Source of the DNA: Chloroherpetonaceae bacterium
GTDB taxonomy: Bacteria; Bacteroidota; Chlorobiia; Chlorobiales; Thermochlorobacteraceae
Assembly: GCA_033763895.1 (NCBI GenBank)
Contig: JANRJQ010000010.1
Span: 2,146-66,145 of the forward strand
Length of the DNA: 64,000 bases
Direction of reading: 5' to 3'
Below the pieces are notes generated by a model. That model worked only from the letters and a program-made list of their open reading frames with translations. It was not told the DNA's origin and made no database searches. Both the position numbers and the translations under genes were made by a program. Shown here in pieces: positions 2,582 to 47,911 of the stretch. Position 1 is the stretch's first letter. Every line of letters begins with the position of its first letter.

Positions 2582-4243
2582 GTGGAGCGTCGAGATTTCT
2601 TGAAATTAGCCGGATTAGGAGTCTCCGGCGCAGCATTAACCAGCCTGACTTCACTTCCTACCTTCGCTAAAGAAATTCCTGTTGAACAGTCTCTTGCCTC
2701 ACTTGCCGATTTCGTCGATGTGAAAAAATTGAGCGATGCCGCACTTTCAGCGGCCAAAGCTGCTGGTGCCACTTACTGCGATGTTAGAATCGGTAGATAC
2801 CTCAATCAAGCAGTGTTTACGCGCGAAAACAAAGTGCAGAATGTAACCAATACCGAATCGATTGGAGCAGGGATTCGCGTCCTTGCCGGTGATAAAGCCA
2901 CGTGGGGCTTCGCGTCAAGCAACGATTTATCGCCTGAAGGCATCGCCCGAACTGCACGCGCAGCAGTGGCTATTGCAAAAGCCAATTCACGCATTCAAAC
3001 CGATCCTGTGAAGCTTGCACCGACACCTTCGCTCGGAGAGGTTTATTGGAAAACCCCAATCGAAAAGAATGCCTTCGAAGTGCCAATGAAAGAAAAGGCC
3101 GATCTTTTGCTTTCGGTCAACGCCGCTGCAATGAAAAATGGAGCACCGTTTGTGACTTCATTTGTCTTTTGCATCAACGAACAAAAATATTTTGCCTCAA
3201 GCGATGGCTCCTACATTTCGCAAGATGTGCATCGCTTGTGGCCGGCGGCTTTTGTCAATGCCGTGGATCAAACCTCTGGAAAGTTTGAAACCCGCAGTGC
3301 GCTCTCTTCACCCGTCGGAATGGGTTGGGAGTATCTCTCCGGTCGGAAGGAAGGCAAATTTGCCGGGCCTCAAGGCACCGTAACGCGTTACGGAAAGTAT
3401 TATGATATGGTCGAGGATATTGGGAATGCCGCCATTTTGGTAAGAGAAAAACTCAGCGCGAAGTCGGTTGAAAAAGGCAAATATGACCTCGTACTTGACC
3501 CGTCACACTTATGGCTGACAATTCACGAATCCGTCGGTCATCCGCTTGAACTCGACCGTGTGCTCGGCTATGAGGCCAATTATGCGGGAACGAGTTTCGC
3601 GACACTTGACAAGTTAAAATCGGGCAACTTCAAATATGGCAGTAAGCTCGTTAATCTCTTTGCCGATAAAGTTCAACCCGGTTCATTGGGTGCGGTGGGT
3701 TACGACGATGAAGGCGTAAGCACCAAGCGATGGGATTTGGTGAAGGAAGGAACGCTTGTAAACTATCAAGCCATTCGTGATCAAGTTCATATTCTAGGGC
3801 AAAACGAATCTCACGGTTGCTGTTACTCGCAAAGCTGGGCTGATGTACAATTCCAACGCATGCCTAATGTCTCGCTTGCTCCCGGAAAGAAAAAACTTTC
3901 GGTAGATGAATTGATCAAAGATGTGAAGAAAGGAATTTATATCGTTGGCGATGGCTCCTTCTCCATCGATCAGCAACGCTATAATTTCCAATTTGGCGGA
4001 CAGCTTTTCTACGAAATTAAAAATGGAAAAATCACCGGAATGCTCCGCGATGTGGCTTATCAATCCAATACGCAAGAATTCTGGAACTCGTGTGCAGCAA
4101 TTGCGGACGACCGCGATTTCAGGCTCGGCGGTTCATTCTTCGACGGAAAAGGGCAGCCCTCGCAATCAAGCGCGGTTTCTCACGGGTCTTCAACCACCCG
4201 CTTTAATGGGGTCAATGTGATTAACACATCTCGCAAAATTTAA
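2582..4243 (+). CDS. TldD/PmbA-family metalloprotease (TldD-type) with a twin-arginine (Tat) signal peptide
   Basis: 553 aa with a GTG start preceded by GGAGG. The N-terminus 'MERRDFLKLAGLGVSGAAL...TFAKE' is a Tat motif. It also has the TldD zinc motif 'HESVGHPLELD' and 'GYEANYAGTSF'. Confidence 0.9.
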   Translation: MERRDFLKLAGLGVSGAALTSLTSLPTFAKEIPVEQSLASLADFVDVKKLSDAALSAAKAAGATYCDVRIGRYLNQAVFTRENKVQNVTNTESIGAGIRVLAGDKATWGFASSNDLSPEGIARTARAAVAIAKANSRIQTDPVKLAPTPSLGEVYWKTPIEKNAFEVPMKEKADLLLSVNAAAMKNGAPFVTSFVFCINEQKYFASSDGSYISQDVHRLWPAAFVNAVDQTSGKFETRSALSSPVGMGWEYLSGRKEGKFAGPQGTVTRYGKYYDMVEDIGNAAILVREKLSAKSVEKGKYDLVLDPSHLWLTIHESVGHPLELDRVLGYEANYAGTSFATLDKLKSGNFKYGSKLVNLFADKVQPGSLGAVGYDDEGVSTKRWDLVKEGTLVNYQAIRDQVHILGQNESHGCCYSQSWADVQFQRMPNVSLAPGKKKLSVDELIKDVKKGIYIVGDGSFSIDQQRYNFQFGGQLFYEIKNGKITGMLRDVAYQSNTQEFWNSCAAIADDRDFRLGGSFFDGKGQPSQSSAVSHGSSTTRFNGVNVINTSRKI

Positions 4244-4246
4244 ATC

Positions 4247-5890
4247 ATGAAGCGAAGAGATTTTATAAAACTTTCCGCCTTAGGGCTTGGCTCAGCTGCC
4301 TTGGTAAGTCCCGTGCTTTCAAAGCCGTTTGAAAAATCGGTTGATGAATCGCGCCTAAAGGAAGCAACACTTTCAGCGGTCGATAAAAAGAATTTGGCAA
4401 CTGTGGCACTCACTGTCGCGACTTCCTCCGGAGCTTCATATGCCGATGTCCGTTTGGGAATGTATCTCCGCCAAGCCATCAACACCCGCGAAAAGCAAGT
4501 GCAAGGCATTCAAAGCGGCGAGTCGCTCGGTGCCGGGGTTCGTGTGATTGTGAACGGCACGTGGGGATTTTCATCCACCAACGATCTCACCGCCGATGGC
4601 ATCGCCAAAGCAACTCGCGGCGCAGTAGCCATTGCAAAAGCGAATTCTCGCATACAAACCGAGCCTGTTAAACTTGCGCCCACTAAAGGTTTGGGCGAGG
4701 TGTCGTGGAAAACACCGATTTTGAAAAATGGATTTGATGTTCCCATTAAAGAAAAAGTAGAGGTATTGCTTAGCGCCAATGCTGCAGCAATGACTGCCGG
4801 GGCGAGCTTTGTGAATTCACAACTCTTCCTGATTAATGAGCAAAAGTACTTTGCTTCGACCGATGGCAGTTTCATTGATCAGGATATTCACCGAATATGG
4901 CCAAATTTCTCTGTCACCGTTACTGATGGACCGGGCAAATTTGAGACTCGCTTGGCGCTCAGTGCCCCTTCAGGAATGGGCTATGAGTATTTGGATAATA
5001 ATGCCAAACCGGCACTTACCACTGCGCTTGACTTGTACGACAAGAGATATAATATGATTGCCGATGCTCGTGATGCCGCCAAACAAGCCAAAGAAAAGTT
5101 AAGAGCAAAGTCGGTGGAAAAGGGCAAGTATGATTTGGTTTTAGACCCAACGCATCTTTTTCTTACTATTCATGAATCTGTTGGTCATCCGCTTGAGCTA
5201 GACCGCGTCCTTGGCTATGAAGCCAATTATGCCGGTACAAGTTTTGCTACGCTTGATAAATGGAAAACCAAAAAGTTTAATTACGGTAGCCCCATAGTCA
5301 ATTTCTTTGCGGATAAAACTCAGCCCGGTTCGCTTGGCTCTGTCGGTTATGATGATGAAGGCGTGCAATCCAAACGCTGGGATTTGGTCAAAGACGGCGT
5401 GCTTGTCAACTATCAAGCGACGCGCGATCAAGTTCACATTATCGATCAGAATGAATCACACGGTTGTTCTTACGCCGATAGTTGGAGCAGCGTGCAATTT
5501 CAACGCATGCCCAATGTTTCACTTGCGCCCGGAAAAAAGAAGATTACCCCAATGCAAATGATTAAAGATGTTAAAAAAGGCATCTACATTGTTGGTCGTG
5601 GGTCATATTCCATCGACCAGCAGCGATATAATTTCCAATTTGGTGGGCAGCTTTTTTATGAAATCAAAGATGGGAAAATTGCAGGGATGCTGAAAGATGT
5701 GGCTTATCAATCCAATACACAAGAGTTTTGGAATTCGTGCAGTGCACTTTGTGATGAGCGCGACTACCGTCTGAATGGATCGTTCTTTGACGGCAAAGGT
5801 CAGCCATCCCAAGTGAGTGCCGTCTCGCACGGCTCGCCCACGGCCCGCTTTAACGGAATCAATGTTTTGAATACAGGACGTAAAATCTAA
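4247..5890 (+). CDS. TldD/PmbA-family metalloprotease (TldD-type) paralog with a Tat signal
   Basis: 547 aa. It has 'MKRRDFIKLSALGLGSAAL', 'HESVGHPLELD', and a C-terminal half that is collinear and mostly identical to 2582..4243. It starts 3 nt after the previous stop. Confidence 0.9.
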   Translation: MKRRDFIKLSALGLGSAALVSPVLSKPFEKSVDESRLKEATLSAVDKKNLATVALTVATSSGASYADVRLGMYLRQAINTREKQVQGIQSGESLGAGVRVIVNGTWGFSSTNDLTADGIAKATRGAVAIAKANSRIQTEPVKLAPTKGLGEVSWKTPILKNGFDVPIKEKVEVLLSANAAAMTAGASFVNSQLFLINEQKYFASTDGSFIDQDIHRIWPNFSVTVTDGPGKFETRLALSAPSGMGYEYLDNNAKPALTTALDLYDKRYNMIADARDAAKQAKEKLRAKSVEKGKYDLVLDPTHLFLTIHESVGHPLELDRVLGYEANYAGTSFATLDKWKTKKFNYGSPIVNFFADKTQPGSLGSVGYDDEGVQSKRWDLVKDGVLVNYQATRDQVHIIDQNESHGCSYADSWSSVQFQRMPNVSLAPGKKKITPMQMIKDVKKGIYIVGRGSYSIDQQRYNFQFGGQLFYEIKDGKIAGMLKDVAYQSNTQEFWNSCSALCDERDYRLNGSFFDGKGQPSQVSAVSHGSPTARFNGINVLNTGRKI

Positions 5891-21855: not shown

Positions 21856-24800
21856 AGCACTTGCATGAAGAAATTGAAATAACACAGCGGCTTTTTGAAC
21901 TTTGGAAAAAAATGCGCCGGAGAATTTGGGAAACAGGCATACTTCAAGTTCTAATGGCGGCTTTGGTAGTGCTTTTCTGTTTTGGTTTAACCGAGTGGAT
22001 TTTTGAGTTTGGTCGGATTGGGCGAGGGTTTTTATTGATTCTTGTACTGACTTCTGTTGCGAGTGCATCGATATACTTTTTATTTCGCCCATTAAAGAGA
22101 TTCCCTTTTAACCGCGAAAGAATGGCCAAACTTATTGGGAATATGATTCCTGAAATAGGCGATAAACTGATAAATGCGTTACAAATCTATCAAGAGTCTC
22201 CTGAGAATGCATTTTCAAGGGCGGCACTGATTTCTGCTTATCAATCTGCTTCTCTATTCAACTTCCAAGCCAAGGTTTATGATGATCGATGGTTCCGAAA
22301 ATTTGGCCCAAGTGTCTTAAGCCTTTCTCTTTTTTCATTATTGCTTTTTCTACCGCCGATTCAACTTTCAGAGCCGTTAAAGCGAATTCTATTTTTTTAT
22401 GAGCACTTTTCACCGCCTGAGAAATTTCAATTAAAAGCGCTTTCTGGAGATTTGGAAGTATTGGCAGGGAAGGAGGCGGTTCTTCAATTTACGATAGTTT
22501 CACTTTTGGAGGGAGTCGACGACTCACCGCCCCACGAAATGAAGATTTTTTTAGTGAATAAAGATGGATTTTCATTCGCGGAGCAGGCGCTTATTGCCGA
22601 TAGTAGCGGCAAATTTAACTTTAAAATGCGATCCGTTAAGGAAGCGCTTCATTATTACGGCGTAGCAAAACTGAACGAAAAAAAAACAATCACAAGCGAC
22701 ACTCATCGCATTGCTCTTTTACAAATTCCTTCGGTTAATTTCTTTCAACTATCCATTAAGCCACCCGGCTATACCGGTTTGCAGCCTGTTAAAATTGAAC
22801 CGAATTTTGGCGATGCCACTGTGATAAGAGGTTCAGAAATTGAATTAAACTTGCGTGCTTCAACAGCGTTATTGAAAGCACGAACCATCATCGATTCCCC
22901 GCTCCCTGATGTGATTGAAATGAGTGTCCGTTCAGATTCTGCCAAAGTAAAACTTTCTATCCGTGAAAATACCACCTATCGTTTTTTGATTGAAGATAAA
23001 AATGAAGTTAAAGGTGAACTTTCTCCGAAGTATCAAATTAAAGCAATAGGTGATAACCCTCCGGAACTAAAAGTTGTAGCACCCTCAACGCCTGAATTCG
23101 ATATTCCCCAATCAATGAAGCTACCCGTGATTGCAAACCTTCGCGATGACTTCGGCTTCAGTCGTTTCTCTCTTTTTTATCGCAATTCAAAATCAAATTA
23201 TAAAGAGCCGGAACAGTTTTATTCCGAGTTAATTCTATCACTTGAATCAGCTGAAGGAAGTAAAACAGAAAAGAGAATCAATTACCAATTCGATCTCTCT
23301 AAAATTCAAATTTCAGAAGGTGATGAATTAGAATTCTATCTCCAAGTTTGGGATAACGATGCGGTTTTAGGATTTAAATCAGTAAAAAGTGAAACTTTCA
23401 AATTAAGACTGCCAACGCTTGATGAACTTTATACTGAAGTCGAAAAAGAAGAGGAAAGCATCTTAAAAAATTTAGATGACAAAATTGAAAAGGCAGCTGA
23501 ATTGCAACGCGAATTAGAAGCAGTTCAAGATGAACTGCGCCAAAAAGTTCAATCCGATTGGCAAGATCGAAAAGCAATTGAACAAGCGATGCAAAAACAA
23601 AAGGAATTGCAAGCGAGCATTGAGGAAGTAAAAAATGAAATGCGTGAGATGCTCTCCAAAGCAGAAGAGCGCGAATTGCTTTCCGAAGAAACATTGAAAG
23701 AATATGAAGAGGTTATGAAATTGATGGATGAAGTGAAATCTGCTGAAATTGAAAAGGCAAGGGCTGAAATGGAAAAGGCGCTCTCTCAGATGAATGAACA
23801 AAAAATGAGAGAAGCATTAAAAAATTTTTCAATGAATGAAAAGAAATTGAAAGAAGTGCTTGAGCGAACAAAAGAATTGCTTACCCGAAAACAGATTGAG
23901 CGCAAAATTGATGAAATGATAACGAGAATGGATGCCCTCTCAGAAAAGCAAGATAAACTCCAACTAAAAACAGAGCGTGAACTTTCACAACCCGCAAAGT
24001 CAGAGAAAGTGCAGGAAGAAAAGGCGGCATCCCTTGCTCAAGAGCAAGAAAAATTGAAGCAGGAGTATCAAGAGCTTCAAGCACAAAACGAGGAATTAAA
24101 GTCGCTTATGCAATCGTATCCGAAGCAAGATAAACTGCCTACAAAGGAACAGCAGGATTTTGAAGAGGAAATGAAGTTTCAAGATGTCACGCGTGAGATG
24201 AATGAAGCAGCAAAAGAAATCAAAGAGAGAAAACTTGAAAGTGCCAAAGAGAAGCAGCAATCTGTACAAGCGAAAATGAAATCTCAAAAAGACCGCCTTG
24301 CATCAATGAAAAGGGAAGTCACCAAACAGCGTAAAGAGGAAGTTTTGGATGCAATGCAAAATCTCGCTCATTCTGCTCTTGAACTCTCTTTGGAACAGGA
24401 AGAATTACGAGGCAATATTGATGAACCTGATATGAATGCCGGCACGGAAGAAATGCGTCAAAAGGCAGCAGGGCAACAAGAGCTTTTGGAATCACTTCGC
24501 CAAATGCAACAATCAATTTCGAATGTTGGAAAAAAATCATCTCAAGTAAGGCAAGAACTTTCAGAATTGCTTCAAAAGGCTGCAAGCCAAATGGAGGCTT
24601 CGATTCGTCAATTGGAAAATCGCAACACACCGGCTGCGCAGCTTGAAATGCAATCGGCAATGCAAAACTTGAATGAATTCGCTAGTCGATCCGCGGAAAT
24701 GATGGCTGCGATGCAAAATCAAGGTCAAGGCGGTGAAGGAGGAGGAGAAGATGGCGAAGATTTGGGCGAATCAATGAATGGTCTCGCGGGCGAACAAGGT

Positions 24801-25313
24801 AAATTAAATGAACAGACTCAAGAAATGGGAAGTCGAGAAGAGCAAAGCAAGTCCGAAAGAATGTCTCAACTTGCGGCACAACAAATGGCTCTGAAAGAAC
24901 AGTTGGAAGGAATTCGTCAAAGGCAAAAGCAAAAAGAAGAAAAAGCGTCAAAAGATGGAAAACCTTCCTCACAAGAGCTTTTAGGGAACCTTGATGAACT
25001 GGCAAGCGAGATGGAACAAACCGCAAAAGAATTGGCGCAAAATCAATTCAATAAGGAACTTGTTTCACGCCAACAAAAAATTCTAACAAGAATGTTGGAA
25101 TCAACCCGTTCTCTTCAAAAGCGTGAGGAAGAGGAGCAACGAGAAGCGAAAAGCGCAAAAAGTATCTTTAAACGATCGCCGGCTGAACTGCCAAAAACGC
25201 CCCCTCCGAACCGACTCCGAGATGCCCTTAAACGTCTAAAAGAACAGGGCTTTACTGAAGATTATGAAAGAATCATTAGGCGCTATTACGAAAAAATCGA
25301 TCAAACTTTATAA
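21852..25313 (+). CDS. Large membrane-anchored coiled-coil protein (DUF4175-like architecture); function unknown
   Basis: 1153 aa. Two N-terminal hydrophobic helices are followed by a ~450-aa globular region and then ~600 aa of E/K/Q-rich heptad-like sequence. The ATG overlaps the uvrA stop (ATGA). The family assignment is from memory of the architecture only. Confidence 0.5.
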   Translation: MKHLHEEIEITQRLFELWKKMRRRIWETGILQVLMAALVVLFCFGLTEWIFEFGRIGRGFLLILVLTSVASASIYFLFRPLKRFPFNRERMAKLIGNMIPEIGDKLINALQIYQESPENAFSRAALISAYQSASLFNFQAKVYDDRWFRKFGPSVLSLSLFSLLLFLPPIQLSEPLKRILFFYEHFSPPEKFQLKALSGDLEVLAGKEAVLQFTIVSLLEGVDDSPPHEMKIFLVNKDGFSFAEQALIADSSGKFNFKMRSVKEALHYYGVAKLNEKKTITSDTHRIALLQIPSVNFFQLSIKPPGYTGLQPVKIEPNFGDATVIRGSEIELNLRASTALLKARTIIDSPLPDVIEMSVRSDSAKVKLSIRENTTYRFLIEDKNEVKGELSPKYQIKAIGDNPPELKVVAPSTPEFDIPQSMKLPVIANLRDDFGFSRFSLFYRNSKSNYKEPEQFYSELILSLESAEGSKTEKRINYQFDLSKIQISEGDELEFYLQVWDNDAVLGFKSVKSETFKLRLPTLDELYTEVEKEEESILKNLDDKIEKAAELQRELEAVQDELRQKVQSDWQDRKAIEQAMQKQKELQASIEEVKNEMREMLSKAEERELLSEETLKEYEEVMKLMDEVKSAEIEKARAEMEKALSQMNEQKMREALKNFSMNEKKLKEVLERTKELLTRKQIERKIDEMITRMDALSEKQDKLQLKTERELSQPAKSEKVQEEKAASLAQEQEKLKQEYQELQAQNEELKSLMQSYPKQDKLPTKEQQDFEEEMKFQDVTREMNEAAKEIKERKLESAKEKQQSVQAKMKSQKDRLASMKREVTKQRKEEVLDAMQNLAHSALELSLEQEELRGNIDEPDMNAGTEEMRQKAAGQQELLESLRQMQQSISNVGKKSSQVRQELSELLQKAASQMEASIRQLENRNTPAAQLEMQSAMQNLNEFASRSAEMMAAMQNQGQGGEGGGEDGEDLGESMNGLAGEQGKLNEQTQEMGSREEQSKSERMSQLAAQQMALKEQLEGIRQRQKQKEEKASKDGKPSSQELLGNLDELASEMEQTAKELAQNQFNKELVSRQQKILTRMLESTRSLQKREEEEQREAKSAKSIFKRSPAELPKTPPPNRLRDALKRLKEQGFTEDYERIIRRYYEKIDQTL

Positions 25314-25323
25314 AACGCGTTGT

Positions 25324-25635
25324 ATGCTTTTACTTTCAAAGGTTAAACGAACCGAATCAAATTCGCTGCGCTTCGATTGGAATGATGGGCAAAGCTCAGA
25401 AATTGAATTAAAAAAAATGCGTGATGAATGTCCGTGTGCGAGTTGCAAAGGAGAAACCGTTCTTTTTGAATCCGCGCCGCCCAAGCTCCCTATCTTTGTT
25501 CCCGGAATGTACGATTTAAAGAAAATCGAAATTATTGGTAACTACTCTTTACAGCCAACGTGGGGAGATGGGCATCAAACGGGTTTATATTCTTTCGACT
25601 ATCTTAAGAAACTTTCTTCACCTGTTGTTAACTGA
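25324..25635 (+). CDS. DUF971-family small protein (gamma-butyrobetaine-hydroxylase-N-like Zn-binding fold)
   Basis: The track ORF 25264..25635 overlaps the previous gene, so the ATG at 25324 is more likely. Pattern: 'LRFDWNDGQSSEIELKKMRDECPCASCKGE...WGDGHQTGLYSFDYL'. Confidence 0.7.
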   Translation: MLLLSKVKRTESNSLRFDWNDGQSSEIELKKMRDECPCASCKGETVLFESAPPKLPIFVPGMYDLKKIEIIGNYSLQPTWGDGHQTGLYSFDYLKKLSSPVVN

Positions 25636-25639
25636 AATA

Positions 25640-26104
25640 ATGGCGAAAAAGAAGGAAGAAGAATACAGCAAAAGTATTTCAAATCGTAAAGCGAGATTTG
25701 AGTATGAAATTCTTGATACCTTTCAAACCGGCTTGATTTTGAAAGGCACTGAGGTCAAATCGATTCGAAAAGGAAAAGCTTCGTTAGAAGATAGTTTCGC
25801 TTTGCTTAAAAATGGCGAGGTCTATTTAGAAAACATGAATATCTCACCGTATGAACTTGGAAATATTCATAATCACGATCCACGCAGAAGTCGAAAGCTT
25901 TTAATGCACAAATCAGAAATTGAAAAACTTCGTTACGATGTTTCTGATAGCGGCCTTACGCTCATCCCACTTCGTCTTTATTTTAATGATCGTGGAAAAG
26001 CAAAAATAGAATTAGCATTAGCCAAAGGGAAAAAGCTACACGATAAACGCGATTCCATTCGTAAGCGAGATGCAGAACGCGAACTGCGGCGTGGTGGAGA
26101 ATGA
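25640..26104 (+). CDS. smpB: SsrA-binding protein SmpB
   Basis: The internal ATG at 25640 gives a 154-aa protein starting 'MAKKKEEEYSKSISNRKARFEYEILD'. It has SmpB motifs 'GTEVKSIR' and 'HDPRRSRKLLMHK'. The upstream part of the track ORF overlaps the DUF971 gene. Confidence 0.9.
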   Translation: MAKKKEEEYSKSISNRKARFEYEILDTFQTGLILKGTEVKSIRKGKASLEDSFALLKNGEVYLENMNISPYELGNIHNHDPRRSRKLLMHKSEIEKLRYDVSDSGLTLIPLRLYFNDRGKAKIELALAKGKKLHDKRDSIRKRDAERELRRGGE

Positions 26105-38634: not shown

Positions 38635-39570
38635 TTAATGAAGCCGTTTTACCACAATTTCCCAAATGGATTGATCAAGAGGAACAACTAAAAGCCAATG
38701 CTCAAGCAATGCAAGAATGGACATTGTGCCAATCAGTGAAAATCCTACTTGAATCCAAGCCTCATCCGATTGCTTAACTTTGTTCCATACATAAGCAGCA
38801 ATAAGCGTTGTTAGAGTAATTGAAAATGGGAAAAGCCAATTCATATGAGCAATTGTCATATAATGGGTCATACTTTCTACGGTTTCAGGTACAAGCTCCT
38901 TACCTGTATTCATAACGCCAAGAAAAATATTCAGCTTTGCCGATTGATGCATAAACCAAAACATCAAGTAAACATAAAGCCCAAATTTGTTTTTGGCTTT
39001 TGCAGAAATACCAAAAATTAAACATGCTAAAAAGAGTACTAATCCTTCGTGATAGGCACTTTGATGAACCGCTCTGAAAAATGAATCCATTGAGGGCTTG
39101 ATTGAAAAGATCGGTCGAACACGCGGGCCGACAATATACCCCGAGTAAAAACTGACTTCTACAAAAGCCCAAATCAAAACCCCAGCTGTAAATGAAATGT
39201 AGATAGCACGTTCAGAACGATCATTTCGGAAGTGATAAAGTAGGTAAAGTGAAACAAGAGCCAATCCAAGAGAGAATAAAAATGATAAAGTTCTTGTATT
39301 TGGAATAAAGGAGAGATACATGATAACCGCGGTCGAGAACCACCAAAAAATCAAAGAGAAAAAAAATGCGGTAAATACTCTTGACTGCTTTTGGGTTAAG
39401 GGCCATTTGAATCCATTAGAAAAAAAAAGGCGATGTAAACGACGCTCGGGGATGTGATTGTCAAGATTAGTCAATTTATCATCAAGAAAATCGCCCGTTG
39501 TCCTTCGTTGCGATTGAGAGGAACCGGAGTTTATTTGCCGAGTGTCTGAAACTTCTTCTGGCATAGACAA
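38635..39570 (-). CDS. Polytopic inner-membrane protein of unknown function (possibly DUF3623/PuhE-like)
   Basis: 311 aa with a polar ~60-aa N-terminus followed by 7-8 hydrophobic helices. The motifs 'HQSAKLNIFLGVMN' and 'ALLEHWLLVVPL' resemble my recollection of DUF3623; this is not verified. Confidence 0.4.
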   Translation of the reverse strand: MSMPEEVSDTRQINSGSSQSQRRTTGDFLDDKLTNLDNHIPERRLHRLFFSNGFKWPLTQKQSRVFTAFFFSLIFWWFSTAVIMYLSFIPNTRTLSFLFSLGLALVSLYLLYHFRNDRSERAIYISFTAGVLIWAFVEVSFYSGYIVGPRVRPIFSIKPSMDSFFRAVHQSAYHEGLVLFLACLIFGISAKAKNKFGLYVYLMFWFMHQSAKLNIFLGVMNTGKELVPETVESMTHYMTIAHMNWLFPFSITLTTLIAAYVWNKVKQSDEAWIQVGFSLIGTMSILALLEHWLLVVPLDQSIWEIVVKRLH

Positions 39571-42343: not shown

Positions 42344-42393
42344 GTAATGCTTGGAAATAACTTGGTTAGTGGATAAAACAAACGTTGTTATAA

Positions 42394-42747
42394 ATGGAAA
42401 ATTGTATTTTTTGCAAAATCGCATCCGGAGCGATTCCCTCCAAAAAGGTTTATGAAGACGAAGAAATATTTGCTTTTCATGATATCAATCCGGTAGCCCC
42501 AATTCACATCTTGATTATCCCAAAAAAACATATTGCGTCACTGGTAGAAGTAACGACAGACGATTTGTTTCTTTTGGGGAAAATGATGCATGTTGCAAAG
42601 CAGTTAGCGGCTGAATTTGGGCTTTCTGACAAAGGCTATCGTATCAACATCAATACAAATGCAGACGGTGGGCAAACAGTGTTTCATTTGCATGTTCATT
42701 TAATCGGAGGAAAGCGGATGGGGTGGCCTCCTTTCCCGACAATTTGA
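42394..42747 (+). CDS. HIT-family (histidine triad) nucleotide-binding protein
   Basis: 117 aa. It has 'CIFCKI' and the triad 'HLHVHLIGG'. Confidence 0.9.
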   Translation: MENCIFCKIASGAIPSKKVYEDEEIFAFHDINPVAPIHILIIPKKHIASLVEVTTDDLFLLGKMMHVAKQLAAEFGLSDKGYRININTNADGGQTVFHLHVHLIGGKRMGWPPFPTI

Positions 42748-42866
42748 CAGAAAAAAGGCGTAATTAATTTTGACTTTTGAAATAGGTAAAACGAATGGAA
42801 TTTCATTAACTTGAGTCTGAAATTCGATATGAATGAGTTTCGATAAAGAGTGATTTTCAAACGGGA

Positions 42867-43208
42867 ATGACCACATCACAACTTTCAACACGAATAGAAT
42901 TCTTGAAGAGTTTTTTGGAAAAGGATCCAAATGATTCCTTTTCTAGATATGCGCTTGCGCTCGATTATTTAAATAGTGGAGATATCTCCTTGGCGGTTGA
43001 AGAATTTGAAAGGTTACTCAAAATCGACCCTAATTATAGTGCTACTTATTATCATTTTGGAAAAGTGCTCGAACGATTAGGTAAAACTTCTGAAGCCAAA
43101 GAACTTTATCAAAAAGGCATAGAATTAACAACAAAAAAGGGTGAGGCACATGCCTTAAAAGAGTTAAAGGAGGCTCTTTTTACACTCACACTTAGTGAAG
43201 AAGATTAA
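42867..43208 (+). CDS. Small TPR-repeat protein
   Basis: 113 aa with two or three TPR-like units ('YALALDYLNSGDISLAVEEFERLLKIDPNYSATYYHFGKVLERLGKTSEAKELYQKGIEL'). Confidence 0.6.
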   Translation: MTTSQLSTRIEFLKSFLEKDPNDSFSRYALALDYLNSGDISLAVEEFERLLKIDPNYSATYYHFGKVLERLGKTSEAKELYQKGIELTTKKGEAHALKELKEALFTLTLSEED

Positions 43209-43245
43209 TTTGAATTGAAACCATAAACTTAACTCGCTTACCATT

Positions 43246-46001: not shown

Positions 46002-47249
46002 GTGGAATCGCGTACTTCTGAAAGAGGATATACCGTAATTGCGCGGAAATATCGGCCGATGAAATTCGCCGATATTTCCGCGCAAGATCATATTACCCGC
46101 ACCTTGCAAAATGCGATTCGAACCGGAAGAATTGCTCACGGTTATATTTTTTCTGGTTCACGAGGCGTTGGTAAAACGACTTCTGCAAGGATTTTAGCCA
46201 AAGCTTTGAATTGTGAGAAAGTTTTGACCGACGAACATTATCGGAAGGAAATTGCGGAGCCTTGTGGGGTTTGTGAAAGTTGCCGCGACTTTGATTCAGG
46301 GGAAAGCCTAAATATTTTTGAATTTGATGCAGCATCGAACAATAGTGTTGACGATGTTCGTTCGCTCCGAGATAACATCCGATACGGTCCTCAAAAGGGA
46401 AAGTATCGGGTTTACATTATTGATGAGTTTCACATGCTCTCCGCAGCTGCTTTTAACGCTCTGTTAAAGACGCTCGAGGAACCTCCACCACATGCAATAT
46501 TTATTTTCGCGACAACTGAGCTTCATAAAGTCCCACCGACCATTTCGTCGCGGTGTCAGCGATTTATTTTTAAGCGAATTGCAGCTATTGATATTGCTCA
46601 ACGACTCAGGCATATTTGTGATGTTGAAGGAATTCGGGCTGATGAAGATGCGCTACAACTGATTTCAAGAAAAGCTGACGGGGCAATGCGAGATGCTCAA
46701 AGCTTGCTTGATCAAGTGATAGCATTCTTTTCAGCTGAAGAAGATGGCGATTCTTTTAATATTGATTACAAGCGCGTTTCTGAACTGTTGAATACAATCG
46801 GTGAAGAGCAACTCTTTTCAGTGACCGATGCAATAACAGAAAAAGATGCTCAAAAAATGCTCGAAGTCAGTCAATTCATTTATGAGAATGGCTACGACGC
46901 ATCCTATTTCTTAGATGAATTGGTAAGGCATATTCGAAACTTGATGATCATCAAAAATGTCCGATCAAGTCGCTTGATTGATGGTACAGAGCAAACCAAA
47001 AAGCGATATGAAAGCTCTGCACAAAATTTTACTGCCGATATTCTTACTCAATTTGCAGAAGTATTAGCAAAAACCTCTCAAGAGATTCGGCAATTGAGAG
47101 AACCTCAGTTAAGGCTTGAGCTCTCGCTTTTAAGACTGATTGATATTCATTCATCAGGTTCGTTGGATGCGAGATTGCAAGAGGTTGAAAAGGGTTTAGC
47201 CGCTATTCAAGAACTCATAAAAAAAAAGAATTCTTCCAAAACGGGATAG
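46002..47249 (+). CDS. dnaX: DNA polymerase III subunit gamma/tau, zero-frame product (415 aa, gamma-like)
   Basis: GTG start. It has AAA+ clamp-loader motifs 'GSRGVGKTT', a zinc module 'CGVCESCRDF', 'YIIDEFHMLS' and the 'SRCQRF' sensor. The frame ends at TAG 47247-47249, six codons after an A9G tract. Confidence 0.9.
   Translation: MESRTSERGYTVIARKYRPMKFADISAQDHITRTLQNAIRTGRIAHGYIFSGSRGVGKTTSARILAKALNCEKVLTDEHYRKEIAEPCGVCESCRDFDSGESLNIFEFDAASNNSVDDVRSLRDNIRYGPQKGKYRVYIIDEFHMLSAAAFNALLKTLEEPPPHAIFIFATTELHKVPPTISSRCQRFIFKRIAAIDIAQRLRHICDVEGIRADEDALQLISRKADGAMRDAQSLLDQVIAFFSAEEDGDSFNIDYKRVSELLNTIGEEQLFSVTDAITEKDAQKMLEVSQFIYENGYDASYFLDELVRHIRNLMIIKNVRSSRLIDGTEQTKKRYESSAQNFTADILTQFAEVLAKTSQEIRQLREPQLRLELSLLRLIDIHSSGSLDARLQEVEKGLAAIQELIKKKNSSKTG
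47219..47228 (+). other. Recoding signal: A9G tract containing the A_AAA_AAG -1 slippery heptamer (47222-47228) in zero-frame phase
   Basis: The zero-frame codons are ATA AAA AAA AAG. This is the same heptamer and phasing as the E. coli dnaX frameshift site. A nine-A run is also the transcriptional-slippage substrate described for Thermus dnaX. Confidence 0.6.
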
Positions 47250-47911
47250 AAGAACAAGAGAATGCAAGCCCTCAAAGCAATTATGCCCCATATTCAAAAA
47301 AGGATTTAGACAGGGAGCCATTTCTTCAATATCCAAATTTCAATACAGATAAAACACTTCAGAATAACACGGGGCTACATGCGATTGATCTTACCCAATG
47401 GCATGAAAAATTTCAAAAGTTCATTTCTGAAAGTAATTATCGGCCAAGGTTAGCGCCCAAACCAACTCCAGATTTTTTTGAACTCAATTCTGCACAGGTT
47501 CAAAATAATGTTCGAAACGATCTCCACGAAGCACCCAAAAATTTCCCCGTATCACTTATCAAGGAAAAGTGGGAAGGTTTCCTTAAGTATTTAGAGGAAG
47601 AGGGAGAATCAACGCTCAACGCTCATTTACGGTTTTGCGAATTAAGGAAAAGCGAGGGAAAATTATTTTTATTGTACTGTGAGAAAAGATTCTCATTTGA
47701 GCTACTGGCCGATAAAACGGAGTTGATCTCTGAAAAGGCTTCTCAGTATTACGGCTCATCAGTGAAATTTATCATCAAATTAGATAAAGAAGCGGTCAGC
47801 AAAAATGACCAATTTGAGTTAAATGATCGCGATATATTTAAGCGACTTGCCGAGTCTAATGAACTTGTCAAGTATTTGATTCAAGAATTTGGCGCTGAGC
47901 CGGGACTTTGA
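47228..47911 (+). CDS. dnaX: dnaX -1 frame continuation (tau-specific C-terminal region, 227 codons); needs a -1 shift or a +1A transcript to be joined to 46002..47228
   Basis: I translated the frame by hand from 47228 (EFFQNGIEEQENASPQ...) and found it stop-free to TGA 47909-47911. The track only lists its last 79 aa (47672..47911, TTG). The end, 'WEGFLKYLEEEG...KLFLLYCEKRFSFELL...VKFIIKLDKE', resembles the conserved DnaX C-terminal domain pattern. Confidence 0.65.
   Translation, partial: EFFQNGIEEQENASPQSNYAPYSKKDLDREPFLQYPNFNTDKTLQNNTGLHAIDLTQWHEKFQKFISESNYRPRLAPKPTPDFFELNSAQVQNNVRNDLHEAPKNFPVSLIKEKWEGFLKYLEEEGESTLNAHLRFCELRKSEGKLFLLYCEKRFSFELLADKTELISEKASQYYGSSVKFIIKLDKEAVSKNDQFELNDRDIFKRLAESNELVKYLIQEFGAEPGL

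Follow-up and report, generated by a model that had tools for sequence, protein, structure and literature searches.

The window analysed here is the whole stretch of 64,000 nucleotides (nt) at positions 2,146 to 66,145 of contig JANRJQ010000010.1, from an uncultured Chloroherpetonaceae bacterium. It carries a dnaX gene that lies in two reading frames. The zero frame encodes a short, gamma-like clamp-loader subunit, and the -1 frame behind it encodes the C-terminus of the long product, tau. Tau binds the alpha subunit of DNA polymerase III and DnaB, couples the polymerase and the helicase, and is expected to be essential.

Anatomy of the dnaX junction

The junction, the open reading frames (ORFs) and the frames were read directly from the sequence and from the ORF list with its translations. 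The zero-frame ORF of dnaX spans 46002-47249 on the plus strand, starts with GTG and ends with TAG at 47247-47249, giving a product of 415 amino acids (aa) with the DnaX domains I-III. Its 3′ end reads CTC ATA AAA AAA AAG AAT TCT TCC AAA ACG GGA TAG. The homopolymer there is nine A's long (A9, 47219-47227) and is followed by G at 47228. The heptamer A_AAA_AAG (47222-47228) sits in the zero-frame phase, the same as in E. coli dnaX, and six sense codons separate its AAG from the TAG.

In the -1 frame, the stop at 47186-47188 is followed by the next only at TGA 47909-47911. The zero and -1 frames are open together across 47189-47249 alone (61 nt), so the frame change must fall there, and the sole slippery element in this overlap is A9G. 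From 47228 the -1 frame encodes 227 codons up to the TGA. This tau-specific segment (47228-47911, plus strand) consists of a low-complexity linker and then a folded C-terminal domain (47549-47890). The only ORF start listed in its frame is TTG 47672, which gives 79 aa.

The stretch 47250-47888 is the only sizeable one after dnaX without a called ORF, and it coincides with the tau segment. The +1 frame is open for 42 codons past the tract. Adding one A to the tract gives a contiguous ORF of 636 aa (409 + 227 aa).

An earlier sequence-only reading had drawn the same picture. Its A9G tract, heptamer phase, stop six codons on and 415-aa product all stand on direct reading. Its hand translation of the -1 frame as stop-free for 227 codons to 47911 and its predicted junction peptide ...ELIKKKEFFQNGIEEQ are both correct, and the ORF list bears out that no plausible independent start other than the TTG exists.

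At the other end of the gene, the GTG is the nearest upstream start and the relatives' start lies about 8 residues later (MSYQVIARKYRP), leaving the start codon uncertain by some 8 residues. Downstream, a 272-aa ORF with a listed start at TTG 47889 shares 23 nt (47889-47911) with the 3′ end of the tau frame. An ATG at about 47928 is its likelier start, in which case dnaX and this ORF are adjacent without overlap.

Both halves as parts of DnaX

In a Pfam scan the 415-aa product matched PF13177 (1.6e-42), PF22608 (1e-15) and PF12169 (3e-16), which are the DnaX domains I-III. It scored 605 bits against the 397-aa DnaX model NF011516, exceeding the cutoff of 560. The -1 product, which the sequence-only reading found to resemble the DnaX C-terminus, matched NCBIfam model NF011515 at positions 416-617 of 620 (E=4.5e-22) in the hidden Markov model check. 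When the two parts are joined, 98% of the resulting 636 aa can be aligned with contiguous Chlorobia DnaX. Because of this profile match and this alignment, we take the -1 segment to be a genuine tau C-terminus, with a match that exceeds chance.

The divergence of this region limits simpler searches. The Pfam scan of the 227-aa -1 product matched no family, and a PDB sequence search with the C-terminal profile gave a chance match alone. A homologue search with the 227-aa product by itself gave no match, its word index being too insensitive for such a divergent region. The homologue search that worked used the fused 636-aa protein as the query.

A C-terminal alignment including 25 contiguous Chlorobia DnaX proteins has 14 invariant columns, and those common to them and the window tau segment read W, W, HL, C, FS, D and FG.E. 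Modelling of the last 177 residues of tau with AlphaFold2 gave a mean predicted local distance difference test score (pLDDT) of 80, rising to 93-97 over residues 61-140. Residues 58-171 of the model make up the folded domain at 47549-47890. The best Foldseek matches of the model are KH-like domains, from DnaA (domain I, 4tps_D, E=3.9e-4) and from DciA. The E. coli tau C-terminal entries match weakly with high root-mean-square deviation (5fku_E, E=0.037; 2aya, E=0.10; 5fkv_E, E=0.24). The model is compatible with a tau domain-V-like fold.

Conservation of the split

A 415-aa protein is annotated in a Chloroherpetonaceae metagenome-assembled genome (MAG) and is 99% identical to the zero-frame product (P0001). 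Among the 120 best homologues of the fused protein, 91 are 390-442 aa long and 29 are 582-636 aa long, with no intermediate lengths. All 29 long ones have exactly KKK at residues 373-399, and nearly all of the 91 short ones terminate as KKK plus 0-8 residues. At 64% identity or above, 16 clusters are short and one is long.

The split recurs at the DNA level, as the sequence-only reading had asked of the relatives. In L003 (Chloroherpetonaceae), L004 (Thermochlorobacteriaceae) and L094, an identical ATA AAA AAA AAG junction is followed by the stop of the zero frame, and the -1 frame encodes the tau C-terminus. A10G splits in the same phase occur in L001 and L002 (Pelodictyon-type), L005 (a Chlorobium MAG) and L006 (a Chlorobiaceae MAG), and A10T splits in L089, L091 and L092. 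Altogether, dnaX is split at the same tract in Chloroherpetonaceae-like and Thermochlorobacter-like lineages, many Chlorobiaceae and Bacteroidota.

In L003, the tau frame has a second break at about 4390-4442, immediately behind a C7 run, and goes on in a different frame (gene calls at 4218-4442 and at 4471-4821). This second break is probably an assembly indel, so homopolymer counts of that contig are less reliable.

The out-of-frame tau segment evolves under purifying selection in the split lineages. The ratio of nonsynonymous to synonymous substitution rates (dN/dS) is 0.15-0.24 in split-split pairs and in the same range in split-contiguous pairs, as measured on the homologous segment of other split lineages, not on the window's own. 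The window's own segment has synonymous sites saturated against every available relative, with proportions of nonsynonymous and synonymous differences of 0.47-0.49 (pN) and 0.80-0.84 (pS). The conserved split and the purifying selection support the inverted logic of the sequence-only reading, by which the unshifted product is gamma-like and tau (409 + 227 aa) comes from recoding.

The same data bear on whether the gene is decaying or deliberately truncated, such that the 415-aa protein alone is made and the downstream frame is a relic or is separately started. The NCBI annotation does have the 415-aa product only, and gene callers often call a separate 74-194 aa ORF downstream in relatives. 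However, no -1 start precedes TTG 47672, which would lose most of the conserved domain, and the homologous segment is under the above constraint in split lineages. With the invariant residues retained, a confident domain model and an expectedly essential tau, decay or truncation is highly improbable.

Assembly quality

A simpler account is that A9 is a homopolymer miscall of a true A10, the gene being an ordinary contiguous tau ORF that possibly makes gamma by Thermus-type slippage. One added A does restore the 636-aa ORF. The source contig is 978 kb, which may mean a long-read assembly, the near-identical loci L085 and L089 differ by one A, and L003 has its likely indel error at the C7 run.

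Against a miscall, the ORFs of at least 120 aa, which cover 89% of the window, contain 56 other A/T runs of at least 7 nt, two of them A9, and none of these breaks an ORF. The identical ATA AAA AAA AAG split is present in three other independent assemblies, and the finished Chloroherpeton thalassium genome has an A9 split too, according to Antonov et al. 2013 (PMC3711429). The predominance of short clusters among the closest homologues points the same way. A miscall, which the sequence-only reading raised as the trivial alternative, is thus improbable, if less so than gene decay.

An assembly error is hence unlikely for three reasons: other, independent assemblies also carry A9G splits, the closest relatives have mostly the short form, and no other window homopolymer breaks a gene. 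The split is conserved and appears genuine, and a dead gene is unlikely too.

Relation to published dnaX genes

The two-frame arrangement has been known since 2013. Antonov et al. [quoted passage not shown] Poly-A tracts are present in 12 of the 17, with ten A's in nine of them and nine A's in C. thalassium, and the tracts of the published set range over 7-10 A. Taking the Thermus A9 tract as their analogy, they argued that the realignment is transcriptional and programmed. Their Figure S3 shows Pelodictyon phaeoclathratiforme with CAAAAAAAAAAGCACCTGACA, as well as Flavobacterium, Cytophaga, Capnocytophaga and Coraliomargarita, and L001 carries the same CAAAAAAAAAAGCACCTGACA (A10). A later review (Atkins et al. 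2016, PMC5009743) also states that tau derives from a recoding event in some bacteria.

The window gene is an unannotated orthologue of this type. It has domains I-III and then a stop, a poly-A tract at the transition, a startless -1 tau frame and conservation in relatives. It agrees with the published cases in gene, in position (end of domain III) and in tract. In both, the DNA requires a -1 transition for tau and has the zero-frame stop just past the tract. C. thalassium of the same family also has nine A's, and there is no essential difference. Two additions to the published picture are the splits needing +1 correction and the same tract being kept in contiguous relatives, neither of which is stated in the published text consulted.

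Transcriptional slippage on A9 has been shown experimentally for Thermus thermophilus dnaX (Larsen et al. 2000, as cited in PMC5009743 and PMC3711429). The Thermus and window genes are alike in having A9 and then G at the gamma/tau junction, products differing by the tau C-terminus alone and no need for RNA stimulators. They differ in direction, for the DNA frame gives tau and the slipped one gamma in Thermus, whereas the DNA frame gives gamma and the slipped one (+1 A) tau in the window. As to stops close behind the tract in the non-tau frames, a Thermus trait, the zero frame of the window gene closes after 6 codons and the +1 frame stays open for 42.

With E. coli dnaX, the window gene shares the identical heptamer in the identical phase and the same junction between domain III and the tau-specific part. 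However, the shift makes gamma in E. coli, whereas the window zero frame gives a gamma-like product and not tau. The upstream Shine-Dalgarno (SD)-like element and the downstream stem-loop of E. coli are both absent in the window, and the window tract is nine A's.

The IS3-family transposases (OrfA/OrfAB) resemble this case in that the longer, catalytically complete product needs recoding at an A-rich site near the upstream ORF end, and both ribosomal and transcriptional routes are known for them (PMC3711429). The proteins are unrelated, and the fusion is minor and regulated there, unlike an essential replisome subunit here. Window tau and the short form are presumably needed in comparable amounts.

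RNA signals around the tract

The weak 6-bp hairpin pointed out in the sequence-only reading (TTCTTC/GAAGAA, downstream of the tract) does exist but is insignificant. For the 82 nt on the 3′ side of the tract, the folding energy is -6.7 kcal/mol, whereas shuffles average -9.45 (z = +1.1), and 173 of 200 shuffles fold as well or better. An alignment of five related sequences contains no conserved base pairs, AT-A9-GA alone being conserved. An Rfam search around the site returned chance matches only and no DnaX element.

On the upstream side, the 20 nt before the heptamer (CCGCTATTCAAGAACTCAT) contain no GGAG/AGGA-type element. An SD-like stimulator is missing at about 10 nt on the 5′ side of the heptamer, and the clade alignment shows no conservation in that part. 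Any -1 split next to a tract with G behind it will have A_AAA_AAG in phase, so the heptamer has little independent weight as evidence. The only tRNA in the window is for Ala.

Survey of tract-bearing dnaX loci

We read the junction at the DNA level in 57 dnaX loci with a tract of at least 9 A. Their sources include a genome-collection scan with a full-length alignment, which yielded 80 loci and was driven by universal DnaX motifs. Two of these 80 are from Chlorobiaceae and the remaining 78 served the wider survey. A metagenome scan with a 3-sequence C-terminal alignment confirmed three loci.

The tract is A9-A11 at the homologous position in all 57, and the base on its 3′ side is G, T or C. 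The gene is contiguous with tau in the zero frame at 35 loci (A9 in 12, A10 in 19 and A11 in 4). It is split with tau in the -1 frame at 18 loci (A9 in 4 and A10 in 14), 11 with G after the tract and 7 with T or C. At the four others (L043, L069, L077 and L093; A10 in two and A11 in two), the split has tau in the +1 frame, needing one A fewer or two more.

In the contiguous genes the tract begins in all three codon phases. Across the set, 108 of the 114 non-tau frames close within 10 codons, with a median of 3, a layout resembling that of Thermus. By blastp, the long alternative frames are tau C-termini in 10 of the 11 splits outside Chlorobia (E 1e-7 to 5e-68).

Several loci link the architectures. 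The contiguous L086 and the split L001 have a common TC-A10-GCACCTGA, with the incoming upstream frame as the sole difference. L093 has A11 at 2688-2698 within the window-like flanks ATA AAA AAA AAA GAA; its tau begins KKKEFGTRLEP and its zero frame runs to 439 aa. L085 (1537-1547, A11, contiguous) and L089 (2408-2417, A10, split), both on hot-spring metagenome contigs, are identical at 599 of 600 upstream positions, and L090 (2401-2411) and L091 (2396-2405) make the same contrast of A11 contiguous against A10 split. The one-A difference between L085 and L089 is either a population polymorphism flipping the dnaX architecture or a homopolymer miscall. Contiguous and split architectures thus seem to interconvert.

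Among the 80 species-representative loci, 43 carry A9-A11 at the gamma/tau junction, mostly in Bacteroidota and Ignavibacteriota. Contiguous genes make up 30 of the 43, with both alternative frames closing within a few codons. This suggests that Thermus-like slippage may be widespread in this set, which is dominated by the two phyla.

Three Bacteroidales species have dnaX without a poly-A tract. In these, an in-frame TAG comes after domain III (the stop ends at 3595 in L048, 2790 in L060 and 3592 in L083) and, beyond the stop, that frame goes on to encode the tau C-terminus (about 230-280 aa). The surroundings of the TAG are conserved as CCA/ACA TAG ATT GCW AGG (P/T * I A R) and are followed by a possible hairpin. 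They look like candidates for programmed UAG readthrough, which would be a third way to gamma and tau. We found no description of dnaX UAG readthrough in the indexed literature.

Mechanism of tau production

Tau is very probably made here by programmed recoding, be it ribosomal or transcriptional. The unslipped mRNA under standard decoding would give the 415-aa clamp-loader subunit without the tau-specific C-terminus, and a frame change at A9 (47219-47227) would give the full-length tau of about 636 aa, with ...ELIKKK joined to EFFQNG.... The junction peptide ...ELIKKKEFFQNG... would be identical under both mechanisms.

For the main route, we favour transcriptional slippage as the most likely mechanism, with moderate confidence. 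RNA polymerase would stutter on the nine template T's and produce a mixed mRNA population. The A10 transcripts (+1 A) would be translated normally into tau, while the A9 transcripts and most other length variants would give the short product. Ribosomal -1 frameshifting on the in-phase A_AAA_AAG may add to the tau yield. The anatomy, the homology of both parts, the conserved split and tract, the purifying selection and the lack of ribosomal stimulators are observed, whereas slippage in this organism, its level (RNA or ribosome) and its efficiency are inferred.

Slippage is favoured over an E. coli-type shift because the tract is longer than the heptamer needs, is indifferent to phase and to the 3′ base, corrects in both directions and comes without ribosomal stimulators. 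The two mechanisms that the sequence-only reading offered side by side are therefore not equal. Recoding itself is supported, but the comparative pattern fits transcriptional slippage better.

As the main source of tau, a programmed -1 ribosomal frameshift on A_AAA_AAG (47222-47228), with the products reversed relative to E. coli, is possible but doubtful. The heptamer is in the exact phase in the window and in all 11 G-type -1 splits surveyed, and the dnaX heptamer alone supports about 14-16% frameshifting in vitro without stimulators (10.1101/2025.10.02.679949). Nevertheless, the window site lacks an upstream SD-like element and an Rfam DnaX element, and its downstream structure is neither significant nor conserved.

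The ribosomal route also fits the survey poorly. The tract is always A9-A11, more than a heptamer calls for. In seven -1 splits the base behind it is T or C rather than G, and contiguous genes retain this long tract in each of the three phases. Four splits would have to be corrected by +1, out of reach for a -1 ribosomal shift. An essential tau would need a high efficiency, which in E. coli reportedly depends on both stimulators (Larsen et al. 1997, cited in PMC3711429).

Several points weigh against slippage as the main route. Every G-type -1 split makes the strongest known bacterial -1 site available in phase. The 2016 review (PMC5009743) describes the reversed dnaX genes as ribosomal frameshifting and reports E. 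coli-like stimulators in Chlorobium phaeobacteroides, where the tract is only A7. The +1 frame is open for those 42 codons in the window, so not every mis-slipped transcript would yield clean gamma. A9 also lies inside two ordinary window genes, so A9 alone is no proof of programming. The tract-length differences (L085 against L089, L093 and the +1 splits) could be metagenome homopolymer miscalls. Moreover, the indexed literature yielded no experimental test, by transcript or protein, of any Chlorobi dnaX including that of this organism.

An unlikely extension, though less so than a miscall at the window tract, is that the tract works as a contingency locus, switching an essential replication gene heritably and reversibly at the DNA level. 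The tract would then be moved among A9, A10 and A11 by replication slippage, and cells or strains would differ in the default product and the gamma:tau ratio. Transcriptional slippage would buffer every tract state so that none is lethal. The hints are the L085/L089 and L090/L091 contrasts, the window-like flanks of L093 with A11, and the three frame relationships across the Fibrobacterota-Chlorobiota-Bacteroidota (FCB) group.

Implications for annotation

NCBI lists only the 415-aa "gamma/tau" for this genome, so tau in effect appears missing. Most dnaX genes of Chlorobia and many of Bacteroidota are under-annotated in this way, as 91 of the 120 best matches are short. The practical value lies in correcting the annotation and in a candidate for experimental test.

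If made by recoding, tau would be a clean case in nature of an essential protein that can be produced only if a decoding "error" occurs often. With one tract serving contiguous, -1 and +1 architectures, the default product could flip easily when slippage is near 50%.

Other features of the window

The two A9 runs in intact genes are at 22678-22686 and 39420-39428. Their hosts encode a 1153-aa Lys/Glu-rich protein and a 311-aa product of a minus-strand ORF (the run being T9 on its sense strand). Should RNA polymerase slip on A9/T9 here, the 1153-aa and 311-aa genes would give some truncated products too.

Two other places in the window were considered and set aside. The overlapping ORFs 25264-25635 and 25535-26104, which contain A8, were considered as a second frameshift but are two ordinary genes, the latter being SmpB from an internal Met. 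In the 902-nt stretch 42344-43245, which lacks a large ORF, there are a HIT-like and a TPR-like gene, both of them small and ordinary.

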